From Octopus vulgaris (taxonomy: Eukaryota), in assembly GCA_951406725.2 (NCBI GenBank), contig OX597818.1, positions 54,374,001-54,438,000 on the forward strand: a DNA stretch of 64,000 nucleotides. The letters run 5' to 3'. Under the pieces are notes generated by a model that searched no databases, was not told the DNA's origin, and saw nothing but the letters and a program-made list of their open reading frames with translations. The translations under genes were made by a program, and so were the position numbers. Shown piece after piece: positions 5,626 to 30,342 of this stretch (positions are counted from its first letter, which is position 1; each line of letters starts with the position of its first letter).

Positions 5626-5669
5626 TTTCAGTACCGGTTTCGGTCATTTTGAGACCTTTTCAACTGTAA
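5626..5669 (-). ncRNA. Minimal type I hammerhead ribozyme, U3:A8 core variant
   Basis: Reverse complement of 7770-7813. Confidence 0.7.
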
Positions 5670-7769
5670 CGATTAAATAATTAAATTTAGAAAAATTAGA
5701 AGAAAAGTTTTTTAAAAGAATATTTCTATAGTAGTGTTCAGATTTAAGTGGCATTCTGCCTTTCTCTGACTCCCTTGTTTGCACTTGTGTGTTCGAGGTA
5801 GTTGTGAGTTCTTGGTAGGGTAGTAGAGGGAAGGCTGGTGAGGAAAGGGGGTGGGAGAATCTGGGAGTGCCCTGATGGTCGTATTTTGAATGGTCAGTGG
5901 CGGCTGGCAGTCTCAGTTCAATTCAGGATTGTTTATAGAATTAGCGTAGGTGTTATACTAAAAACATTAGTGACAAACTTAAGGGGTAGGGGTGGAGAAG
6001 AAGAAGAAGAAGAAGAAGAAGAAGAAGAAGAAGAAGAAGGAGAAGGAGAAGATGATGGTGATGGTGGTGATGATTATGACGACGATGATGATGATAACGA
6101 TGATGAAGAAGAAGAAGAAGAAGAAGAAGAAGAAGAAGAAGAAGAAGAAGAAGAAGAAGAAGAAGAAGAAGGAGAAGAGAAGATGGTGGTGATGATGATG
6201 ACGCCGATGATGATGATAACGATGATGATGAAGAAGAAGAAGAAGAAAAAACAGAGAAGGGAGAATATGAATGGGTGTAAATATAGCTATGAAGGGGCTG
6301 ATTAGTAATGGATTCTATGGAGTGTAGTATTTGTGTGTGTATATATATTTTTCTTTTATTCTAAAGTTGAGGTATATTAATTGTTTGTCGTAGACCCGTT
6401 AAGAAGTGGCTTGTATTTTGTAATAAAGAGATTTTCTTTACTTATTCTTTGTCTCGAGGGTTGTATCGTCCCTAAATTGGTAGAGGGGGAAAATTCTGAA
6501 GTTTGGTGTTTTTTTGTTGGCGCAAGTATCTATGTGTTGGCTAAAAGCTATTTTTCTGTTTTGGGGAATTTTATCACGGGATCTGTGCAGGGCCATTCGT
6601 TTACGCAAACCATTTTTGTTTGGCCTATGTACTGCTCTTGACACCCGGAGCAGGTTAGTGAGTATATTAGGTTCTCCGAAGCACATGTGAACCGTTGTCC
6701 CTGTTTGTCCCCGTTGTCCCTGTTTACAGTGAAAAGCAACTTCACATGTGCTTCGGAGAACCTAATATACTCACTAACCTGCTCGGGTGTCAAGAGCAGT
6801 ACATAGGCCAAACAAAAAATGGTTTGCGTAAACGAATGGCCCTGCACAGATCCCAGATAAAAATTCCCCAAAACAGAAAAATAGCTTTTAGCCAACACAT
6901 AGATACTTGCGCCAACAAAAAACACCAAACTTCAGAATTTTCCCCCTCTACCAATTTAGGGACGATACAACCTCGAGACAAAGAATAAGTAAAGAAAATC
7001 TCTTTATTACAAAATACAAGCCACTTCTTAACGGGTCTACGACAAACAATTAATATACCTCAACTTTAGAATAAAAGAAAAAATATATATACACACACAA
7101 ATACTACACTCCATAGAATCCATTACTAATCAGCCCCTTCATAGCTATATTTACACCCATTCATATTCTCCCTTCTCTGTTTTTTTCTTCTTCTTCTTCT
7201 TCATCATCATCGTTATCATCATCATCGGCGTCATCATCATCACCACCATCTTCTCCTTCTCCTTCTTCTTCTTCTTCTTCTTCTTCTTCTTCTTCTTCTT
7301 CTTCTTCTTCTTCTTCTTCTTCTTCTTCTTCATCATCGTTATCATCATCATCGTCGTCATAATCATCACCACCATCACCATCATCTTCTCCTTCTCCTTC
7401 TTCTTCTTCTTCTTCTTCTTCTTCTTCTTCTTCTTCTTCTCCACCCCCTACCCCTTAAGTTTGTCACTAATGTTTTTTAGTATAACACCTACGCTAATTC
7501 TATAAACAATCCTGAATTGAACTGAGACTGCCAGCCGCCACTGACCATTCAAAATACGACCATCAGGGCACTCCCAGATTCTCCCACCCCCTTTCCTCAC
7601 CAGCCTTCCCTCTACTACCCTACCAAGAACTCACAACTACCTCGAACACACAAGTGCAAACAAGGGAGTCAGAGAAAGGCAGAATGCCACTTAAATCTGA
7701 ACACTACTATAGAAATATTCTTTTAAAAAAACTTTTCTTCTAATTTTTCTAAATTTAATTATTTAATCG

Positions 7770-7813
7770 TTACAGTTGAAAAGGTCTCAAAATGACCGAA
7801 ACCGGTACTGAAA
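7770..7813 (+). ncRNA. Minimal type I hammerhead ribozyme, U3:A8 core variant
   Basis: UUACAG UUGAAAA GGUC-UCAAAAU-GACC GAAA CCG GUA / CUGAAA. Stem I CAG:CUG, 4-bp stem II, palindromic ACCGGU stem III, GUA cleavage triplet, located at a PLE 3' end. Confidence 0.72.
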
Positions 7814-8059
7814 TGTTCACTATAAAATTATTTTAGCATTTTCTATTTTTTACTTGTTTTTTCATATATATATATATATATACACATATAAACATATATA
7901 TGTATATATATACATATATATATATATACATAAATATACATGTATATATAAATATATATATATATATATATATATATATATATATATACATACATATATA
8001 TATATATACATACATATATATACACATATATATACATACATATACATATATACATATAC

Positions 8060-28100: not shown

Positions 28101-29320
28101 AGGGTGGGATGCTGGGGTAGGGGTCGAGGCGACAGTCGAGGAAGTATTGGAGGGCTAAGAGACCGTCGTTGTGGGGAATCACAATGTAAAGGGATTTGAT
28201 GTCTAAAGTGAAGAGGAGGTGTGAGGGGCTGGGAGGGAAAGAAAATGAATTGAAGAGACGGAGGGCGTGGTTAGTGTCATGTATGTGGGATGGGAGGGCA
28301 GAGACAGGATGCGGTCGAGGTATAGGGAAATGCGTTTGGTGGGACAATTACAGGCGGAAACGATGAGGCGGCCAGAGTTATTGGGTTTATGAATTTTGGG
28401 AAGGAAATAGATGGTGGAGGTTCGAGGTGTACGGACGATGAGGTTGGTGGTGGGGAGAGCAGAAGAGGAGATGAGGTCATGGATGGTGTAGGACACTCGG
28501 TGTTGGTAGGTGGAGGTGGGATCGGAGGGGAGGAGGCGATAGAAGAGGGGATTTTGAACATGGCTGAGCGCTTCCTCCCTGTATAGGTTCGCTCTCCACA
28601 CCACCACCGCTCCGCCTTTGTCTGCCGGTTTGATGACAATGTCATTGCGGCGACGGAGGTTGCGAAGGGCAATCGATTCAGCCCGAGTGAGGTTGTCTCG
28701 GAGAGGTCTTTTTTTGAAGTTGAATTGGTTGACCAACGCATTGCAGCCGTTCACGAATAAATCTAGGCTACTGAATTGGCCTGGGGGCGGCGTCCAGTTG
28801 GATGGGCGGCGCCCCAGCTCCAAAAGGCAATCCTGATTGTCGTGACGCTGTGGGGACGCGTGGAAAAACGCGCAAAGTATGAGGCGGTGCAGGAACTGGT
28901 TGACTTCGGTTCGGGTCTCAAATTCGTCACAGTGACGCGTGAGAGGCATGAAGCGGAGTCCCTTACTGAGGAGAGAGCGCTCGGCAGCGGAGAGGGGGAG
29001 ATTGGGGGGGGGTATAGTAACAAAAGTGCGAGGAAGCAAGGTGGTGAGATGAGTGGGGTCAGGAATAGGGGGTGCAGAGTTGTGGGGAGGAGAGTTGGAA
29101 TGGTTGGGTGAAGATGGGGTAGGCGATGGAAGGTCAGGGGATATGTGTGTGGGTCCATGGAGGGTGCAGGGGGAAGGGGGGTGCAGGATTGGAGGGAGTC
29201 GTGTGACCTGGAGGGGAGAATGTAGGGGATGAAGGAGGGGAAGGAGGTGAAGGGTTGAGGAGGTGGTGGAGTTTTTTGCTTTTTGTGTGTGTGAGGAAAT
29301 TGTGGAGTTGGTGGTTTGAG
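25142..29320 (-). mobile_element. Penelope-like retroelement (RT + GIY-YIG), disrupted
   Basis: LSKGLRF, DIVIKPADKGGAVVVW, YFLPKIHK, GVAMGTRMGPNFANLFVG, YGRYIDD and GLIYCIKC..YVGQTGR motifs. Long CA-rich 3' UTR and terminal hammerhead; frameshifts and an internal deletion. Confidence 0.93.
25231..25265 (-). ncRNA. Minimal hammerhead-like motif of the PLE terminus, U4C variant (mirror 52869-52903)
   Basis: GUUU CCGACGA A GAGC-UCC-GCUC GAAAC GUU / AAAC; stem III is the loopless palindrome AACGUU. Confidence 0.6.
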
Positions 29321-29549
29321 ATTAAGAATGAAGCGGAGAATGGGTTGGTAGAAGTTTAAAACTGTCTAGTTTCAAAGAAATTATTTTAAAAATCTTTCGG
29401 TCAAAGTGAAAAGACCCTATATATATATATATATATATATATATATATATATATATATATATATATACATACATACATACATACATACATACATACATAC
29501 ATACATACATACATACATATACGTATACTAAATGTGTATAAATCTTTCC

Positions 29550-29795
29550 TTCAATGGATATTTGACATGCAACTGGAGCTAGCCGTGGAACATTACACCA
29601 CCATGCATTTTGAGAGGTAACATTCAACCTTTACATACTCCCCCAGCAACACCAATCTCAAGAAATCTTCTAGTGAATTTGATCTGGGTATTATTGTGAA
29701 CAATGATCTGCGTTGAACAAATCGCATTGTCGCAAAGGCTGAGGGGGTGCTAGCATCACTCAGCAAAACCTTTGTCAGCCGCTCTCCAGCTTTTT
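29550..29795 (+). mobile_element. CR1/L2-type LINE fragment (post-RT region)
   Basis: Translates LKKSSSEFDLGIIVNNDLR*TNRIVAKAEGVLASLSKTFVSRS, like the E.DLG(V/I)..D.L motif of CR1-group ORF2. Confidence 0.6.
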
Positions 29796-30342
29796 TCCTC
29801 TTATCAGATAAGAGTAAAAAACGTTTGATAAGCATAACAAATGCGCAACCGGTAAAAAGAACTTACACCTAATTAAATTACTTAAATTACTTAAATTATT
29901 TTGTCAGCATTTTCTTCATTCCCTTTTTTATATATCACAACTCGTGTTCCACGTCTTCTTTTTAAATATATATATATATATATATATATATATATATATA
30001 TATATATATATATGTATGTATATATATATAAACATATGTACACACATATATATATATATATATATATATATATATATATATATACACACACACACACACA
30101 TATATATATATATATATATATATATATATATATATATATATATATATATATATAACACAAGAAAACAACAAAAACACGAGGACGCGATACATGCAAGGTA
30201 TTAAAAGATATAGATAAATAGATGGATGGATGGAAACTACATTCTCAGGTAAAAGAAAAATCTTTTAGATTTTAATGTCTCCATGTAACGTTCCGAGATC
30301 GCAAAGTTAATGTTTAAAGAGAACGTTCAAAGTCGTGGAAGA

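Follow-up and report, generated by a model that had tools for sequence, protein, structure and literature searches.

The pair between positions 3 and 8 (the 3:8 pair) is established as forming in the active conformation of the hammerhead ribozyme, and swaps of these two bases rescue cleavage according to the accessible text of PMC9901934 and PMC11167929. Minimal hammerheads of Penelope-like elements (PLEs) cut slowly as dimers, and U3-A8 versions were published in 2014, with approximately 1,300 matches in Schistosoma mansoni (Cervera and De la Peña, PMC4209133), in a paper whose accessible part also lists a U3·G8 PLE example from Saccoglossus. The accessible part of Perreault 2011 (PMC3088659) describes natural covariation from C3-G8 to U3-A8, a U4C change in a viroid, and stem II lengths of 1-2 base pairs (bp); U4C has been reported to reduce activity in vitro. 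The in vivo role of PLE hammerheads is debated, since they have been regarded as possible mere parasites of PLEs, while cleavage has been found unnecessary for insertion in vitro. This article concerns the hammerheads of a 64,000-nucleotide (nt) stretch of Octopus vulgaris DNA (contig OX597818.1, positions 54,374,001 to 54,438,000), referred to throughout as the window, together with their relatives in the whole of this microsatellite-rich genome of 2.8 Gb in 227 contigs.

Minimal type I hammerheads occur in the terminal repeats of several PLE families in this genome, and their 3:8 pair has switched among C:G, U:A, A:U, and G:C across lineages, probably because retrotransposition selects a fold that is competent for cleavage. 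The motifs themselves, the 3:8 states at the level of whole families, the location behind the GIY-YIG endonuclease domain, and nested double switches were directly observed. Because the copies are related by descent, lineages rather than copies serve as the units of evidence. An initial annotation of the window had proposed that covariation across families points to selection for cleavage; selection on the folded core is borne out by the present results, whereas cleavage itself is not something that covariation shows.

The five window motifs are designated A to E, with the same letters used for their families, F and G being two further families. All five motif strings of the initial annotation lie where it had placed them, each with complementary bases at positions 3 and 8 (Table 1). 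The type I core, N3-UGAN-N8-A9 followed by G12-A13-A14-A15.1 and U16.1-H17, is complete in A, B, and E and is present with U4C in C. Family D departs from it at A13: motif D has G12-C13-A14 instead of GAA and, in addition, a weak stem I. The closing stems I and II comprise 3-5 bp in A, B, and C, and 4 and 2 bp, respectively, in E. A palindromic reduced stem III is found as ACCGGU in B, D, and E and as ACGU in C; in A, it is an 8-nt ACAUGU(G/A)U that is imperfect in the window copy. Position 17 of E is U in the window copy and C in most of the family, and G12 has been lost in the E copies at 8196-8228, 16038-16070, and 56628-56660. The G3:C8 form is absent from the window and present elsewhere in the genome.

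Table 1. Positions of hammerhead motifs, PLE remnants, and caspase frames in the window.
Feature	Position	Strand	Details
Hammerhead A	4609..4650	minus	Position 3 at 4646, position 8 at 4641, H17 at 4613; core CUGAAGA, canonical C3:G8; stem I GUAC/GUAC, 5-bp stem II, GAA, 8-nt stem III ACAUGUAU, U17
Hammerhead B	7773..7810	plus	Position 3 at 7776, H17 at 7807; core UUGAAAA (U3-UGAA-A8-A9); stem I CAG/CUG, stem II GGUC/GACC, GAA, stem III ACCGGU, A17; predicted cut after 7807
Hammerhead B, mirror copy	5629..5666	minus	Position 3 at 5663
Hammerhead C	25231..25265	minus	Position 3 at 25261; core C3-C4-GAC-G8-A9 plus one extra A; stem I GUUU/AAAC, stem II GAGC/GCUC, GAA, stem III ACGU, U17
Hammerhead-like motif D	29825..29854	plus	Core UUGAUAA, U3:A8; stem II GCAU/AUGC, ACCGGU
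Hammerhead E	8782..8814	minus	Position 3 at 8810; core AUGAUUA (A3-UGAU-U8-A9); stem I UGUC/GACA, 2-bp stem II GC-GAAA-GC, GAA, ACCGGU, U17
Hammerhead E, intact duplicate in repeated block	16668..16700	minus	
Family B PLE, 5'-truncated, inverted	5576..7863		Arms 5576-5992 and 7445-7863, 99% alike
GIY-YIG endonuclease remnants, family B	6380..7050		6723-7050 plus, 6380-6734 minus; tblastn
GIY-YIG C-terminal remnant	9089..9193	minus	tblastn E 6e-07, 63% over 35 amino acids
Broken reverse transcriptase and endonuclease of family C PLE	27372..29321	minus	~2.1 kb upstream of hammerhead C
Family C PLE, second copy	~48800-52990	plus	
Family D PLE, 3' terminal fragment	29791..29965	plus	Ends at (TA)n
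Caspase frames	1368-2249, 11652-12533, 19215-20096, 59500-60381	minus	Pfam Peptidase_C14

The initial annotation had described the five motifs as PLE termini, which holds for B, C, D, and E, and linkage, with the hammerhead lying 3' of the PLE open reading frame (ORF), within the terminal repeat, was found for F and G as well. For A it was not established, as no upstream same-strand PLE ORF was found in 30 fetched loci or in locus L379. Across the fetched loci, 55 distinct motif copies (11 A:U, 16 G:C, 14 U:A, 10 U·G, and 4 others) lie 114-805 nt behind the end of a same-strand endonuclease, at distances of 114-343 nt in family E, 158-196 nt in G, 153-163 nt in F, and 631-805 nt in B. Within the window, the arms of the family B element surround GIY-YIG C-terminal remnants and are flanked by (TA)n-type repeats, and the minus-strand remnant close to hammerhead E sits approximately 280 nt upstream of it. 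An intact relative of family B (L182:1661-4012) has an ORF of 784 amino acids (aa) encoding reverse transcriptase (RT) and GIY-YIG, in which Pfam RVT_1 scores above its cut-off and GIY-YIG reaches 22.4 vs 22.6 bits, while a long family D copy (L366, 1423-4530) carries a 765-aa frame of RT and endonuclease (RT-EN) sharing 72% identity with family B. B, D, and F each have the DKG motif together with a CX4CX2C linker. An RT with DKG, a CX2-5CxxC linker, and GIY-YIG at the C terminus are features of the Neptune/Nematis clade (PMC8557442), and by such motif and domain criteria the elements carrying these hammerheads are classed as endonuclease-positive (EN+) PLEs of the Neptune/Nematis type.

Additionally, the PLEs of families B and F have a separate upstream ORF1 of approximately 400 aa, without a Pfam match, which overlaps the start of the RT frame by approximately 60 nt. 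A tandem copy (L181) displays the succession of an upstream hammerhead (position 3 at 5741, minus strand), the ORF1 frame (5664-4357), the RT-EN frame, and a second hammerhead, with the first Met of ORF1 approximately 120 nt after the predicted upstream cut. Two further groups were encountered in the genome: a 359-bp tandem family with an ACCGGU hammerhead (L122-L128, L380, and L381), which has no PLE ORF at the fetched loci, and a large canonical C3:G8 family (L286-L305 and L377) with a stem II region of approximately 55 nt and stem III ACAUGUGU, linked to a distant PLE-like RT that is 22% identical to family B. An apparent large U3:U8 family, represented by 1,046 matches in a non-C3 search with the latter stem III, was rejected as a mis-parse of canonical C3:G8 motifs with a very long stem II.

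Family states were tabulated across the genome from exact matches in which positions 3 and 8 were left free, as the initial annotation had suggested, the listed rows being tallied by eye in the first 100 rows of longer match lists. Canonical C3:G8 was found in 85 of 100 listed copies of family A (140 matches) and in 96 of 100 of family C (13,072 matches), the latter with C4 in 75 of 100. Family C is the most abundant hammerhead family found, and C at position 4 is its majority state. U3:A8 characterizes families B (99 of 100 listed; 1,953 matches) and D (97 of 100 listed; 1,772 matches, all with C13), and A3:U8 was present in 80 of the 92 matches of family E. None of 18 family D copies lacking C13 had A13; this family is a successful young autonomous PLE with either a dead ribozyme or a candidate active variant core, G12-C13-A14. 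Since the non-canonical states are family majorities, a reading of the variants as random decay, which the initial annotation had named as a possible refutation, fails.

The ACCGGU class of minimal hammerheads was sought with a pattern in which U4, G5, A6, A9, G12-A14, and stem III were fixed, yielding 7,492 genome matches vs 67 for a reversed-pattern control. Watson-Crick combinations occupy positions 3 and 8 in approximately 93% of these matches, and all four pairs occur: 115 of 1,346 A3 matches lack U8, 119 of 197 G3 matches have C8, and G8 accompanies C3 (204 matches) in approximately 60 of the first 100 listed. The U3 matches, 278 of which lack A8, number approximately 5,745 by subtraction, a figure that is approximate because the variable-gap pattern can count one site twice. 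Mismatched combinations are thus far rarer genome-wide than paired ones in this class, in agreement with what the initial annotation had anticipated. Among 279 distinct contexts, 67% have a stem I of 3 bp or longer, likewise a feature outside the pattern's demands, compared with 12% when the 3' strands were shuffled (maximum 19% in 200 shuffles), a contrast that does not constitute a probability, as the copies are related. Position 17 is G in only 7 of the 279 contexts, which the pattern did not demand, and stem I covaries among subfamilies (UGUC/GACA, UAUC/GAUA, AAGCA/UGCUU, and AAGUCA/UGACUU). In one G3:C8 subfamily (L095, L115, L228, and related copies), GUCA on the 5' side of stem I also finds its complement, UGAC, inside loop II, and an alternative fold could therefore compete with the hammerhead.

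The expectation that searches demanding CUGANGA would miss most of these motifs proved correct, with canonical C3/U4 or U4 in only approximately 120 of the 7,492 ACCGGU motifs and in 23 of the first 100 listed family C copies, as tallied by eye. In Rfam, B is a weak HH9 match (RF02275; 19.7 bits vs a cut-off of 52), E has no hammerhead match, and a scan of the whole window gave no hammerhead among the best 150 of 352 rows, those rows being microsatellite miRNA noise. As standard descriptors and Rfam miss most of the motifs, the number of ribozymes in genomes of this kind is underestimated.

The switches were examined at the level of lineages in trees constructed with FastTree. The protein tree has 25 rows; L063 was excluded from the final version because its endonuclease match, which grouped with family F, belongs to a neighbouring element, and one earlier tree left out eight near-identical family B rows. 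Of 67 rows available for the nucleotide tree, 25 had been removed beforehand because their flanks matched poorly. The protein tree contains B and D (U:A) and E (A:U; support 1.0), with C (C:G) as a distant outgroup, and places F (U:A) as sister to G (G:C) at a support of 0.999, with two copies of an A3 subfamily within G. This A3:U8 subfamily, which has the flanks and stems of family G, aligns inside the G:C family; when positions 3 and 8 were left free, 100 listed of its 106 matches comprised A:U 83, G:C 9, A:C 3, G:U 2, A:G 2, and U:C 1. In the 359-bp tandem family, 100 listed of 257 matches comprised C:G 52, U:A 35, C·A 11, and U·G 2. By parsimony, approximately four to five double changes appear to have occurred, some involving two transversions and each ending in a Watson-Crick pair. 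CpG loss and hairpin-templated correction cannot explain the change from G:C to A:U, because both bases lie outside CpG and those next to positions 3 and 8 do not complement each other.

A mechanism can be envisaged in which two copies would pair via their self-complementary stem III (ACCGGU or ACGU), perhaps with help from an element protein, and would then be cut after position 17. Cutting at the upstream hammerhead, located before the first AUG of ORF1 as in the tandem copy, would detach the element RNA from a transcript that reads through from upstream. The 3' copy would often stay uncut, which would suit a slow, dimer- or protein-dependent ribozyme. Inserted copies retain the whole 3' hammerhead and a tail, 56 nt long in the family B window copy, so the template was uncut there, which agrees with what was found in vitro for the anole element discussed below. 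Four sets of assembled contigs aligned to family B gave no informative ends, a result that bears on neither expression nor cutting. Only master lineages would be under selection, which may lapse for a while, allowing lineages with a damaged core to amplify temporarily, some of them as intermediates between paired forms. The 3:8 complementarity is indeed not absolute: it is a long-term constraint that can lapse in young amplifying lineages, and U3·G8 and C3·A8 are half-way states between C:G and U:A.

Several observations weigh against selection for a cleavage-competent fold. Family D is fixed for C13 despite its high copy number and near-intact ORF; a young subfamily of F that has an intact 775-aa frame carries U3·G8 together with a stem I that is shifted (60 of 100 listed, 299 in total); and the C3·A8 tandem subfamily, which includes a tandem trimer, has been amplified (11 of 100 listed). 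Little weight is given to a weak U3·G8 family (L370-L375), with a poor stem I and PLE linkage not established. Stem II is only 1-2 bp in several G3:C8 subfamilies. In predicted lowest-energy folds of the monomers, A, B, and E alone have both stem I and stem II. Predicted dimers of B, D, E, and G are joined through ACCGGU, but those of A and C do not use stem III. In the one PLE tested biochemically, insertion in vitro does not depend on cleavage, and none of the RNA-seq ends mapped to its cut site, as stated in the accessible part of PMC11167929. Furthermore, the protein tree is rooted on a long branch, the nesting of the A:U subfamily is weakly supported in the nucleotide tree, and the conservation of positions fixed in the ACCGGU pattern provides no independent evidence, as the matches were required to have them.

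Some of these points would fit a core fold that is selected not for cutting but, for example, to bind a PLE protein or to signal RNA dimerization, with the 3:8 pair kept because it shapes the fold. The fixation of A13C in a successful autonomous family that retains U3:A8 and ACCGGU favours such a role, as do the weak activity that minimal PLE hammerheads show in vitro and, in the accessible text of PMC11167929, the insertion in vitro without need for cleavage and the inactivity of the hammerhead without protein. It is nevertheless unlikely, given that the 3:8 pair belongs to the conformation that is active in cleavage and that the avoidance of G at position 17 is a rule tied to cleavage chemistry. 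Alternatively, the ribozyme may cut to the benefit of retrozyme-like circular short repeat RNAs, or of itself, while hitchhiking on PLEs that do not need it; parasitism has been raised by Craig 2021, Naiads thrive without canonical hammerheads, and the 359-bp tandem family, lacking a PLE ORF at the fetched loci, also switches from C:G to U:A. This seems rather improbable, however, as the switches follow the protein tree of autonomous families and were therefore fixed in lineages that copy their own ORF.

Neutral decay or drift from canonical CUGANGA, with complementarity arising by coincidence or as a mutational by-product of CpG loss or hairpin-templated correction, is largely refuted and retains very little probability. 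It could draw on the amplification of three half-way states (U·G, C·A, and the second, weak U·G family), on the CpG context of the G8-to-A change in CUGACGA, and on the small statistics that follow from few family-level events (approximately eight). The variants are nonetheless family majorities, a change from U:A to A:U or G:C takes two transversions, and G3 and C8 of family G lie outside CpG, with the bases beside positions 3 and 8 not complementary and hence no hairpin template. No amplified purine-purine or pyrimidine-pyrimidine family was found among 20 subfamilies with at least three sampled copies. Selection for a cleavage-competent fold is the preferred explanation of the 3:8 switches.

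As for the genomic setting, the window contains many retroelement fragments and a repeated block of approximately 10 kb that carries a caspase gene. Several of the window hammerhead copies sit within this shared block and are therefore not independent insertions. Its four tandem caspase-domain frames are uninterrupted, 293 codons long, and 92-98% alike. Other fragments belong to retrotransposons without long terminal repeats (non-LTR) at 35600-36929 (plus), 46487-48257 (minus), and 38432-42447 (minus), among which one RT with zf-RVT and one exo/endo/phosphatase endonuclease were identified.

With respect to described systems, the octopus motifs resemble the PLE hammerheads in the accessible part of PMC4209133 in being of type I, with a short stem I and a palindromic stem III, in lying in terminal repeats and inverted pairs, and in forming many families per genome. 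The switches are well supported as covariation and richer than the initial annotation described, and the motifs are best classed, from sequence, as an extension of this described class. The initial annotation overstated the matter, U3-A8 covariation in PLE hammerheads having already been published in that work. Unlike the present genome, none of the 56 representatives in Fig. S3 of PMC4209133 is A3-U8 or G3-C8 and no A13C family is included; the accessible text contains no phylogenetic mapping of switches, and its descriptor, demanding cuganga and gaaannuh, excludes the ACCGGU class. Perreault 2011 (PMC3088659), in its accessible part, names only U3-A8 as a natural covariation, whereas all four pairs are family states here within one genome. 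The PAc Poseidon element of the green anole carries a C3:G8 PLE hammerhead in which engineered C3G/G8C partly restores cleavage, according to the accessible text of PMC11167929; the swap engineered there is natural here, and PAc belongs to the Poseidon clade, in contrast to the octopus elements with their CX4CX2C linker. The mutant rescue that the initial annotation proposed, with single and double mutants, has thus already been published for a PLE hammerhead, with cleavage proving unnecessary for insertion in vitro. The 359-bp tandem ACCGGU family fits the description of non-LTR retrozymes in the accessible parts of PMC7229834 and bioRxiv 10.64898/2026.07.22.740005, from which the five window motifs differ in being single or inverted PLE ends rather than tandem units.

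A literature search for hammerheads in octopus gave no report of PLE families with natural A3-U8 or G3-C8. Lünse, Weinberg, and Breaker reportedly described in 2017 very many reduced-stem-III variants that are associated with PLEs and cleave as dimers. No natural A3-U8 or G3-C8 PLE families were found in the literature, although that 2017 work or the supplements of the papers may contain them. Repeated compensatory switches of a tertiary pair of the active fold constitute evolutionary evidence for selection on the fold in autonomous lineages, and the natural series of U:A, A:U, G:C, U·G, C·A, and A13C in near-identical scaffolds, several of them bearing intact ORFs, opens the in vivo role of the hammerheads to direct testing. 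Tentatively, this may be the first genome in which related self-copying retrotransposon lineages have fixed all four Watson-Crick 3:8 forms together with the intermediates U·G and C·A, which would provide a natural record of the crossing of a fitness valley and evidence for selection on cleavage in vivo, with family D representing either an active variant of a new kind or a demonstration that elements can do without the ribozyme.

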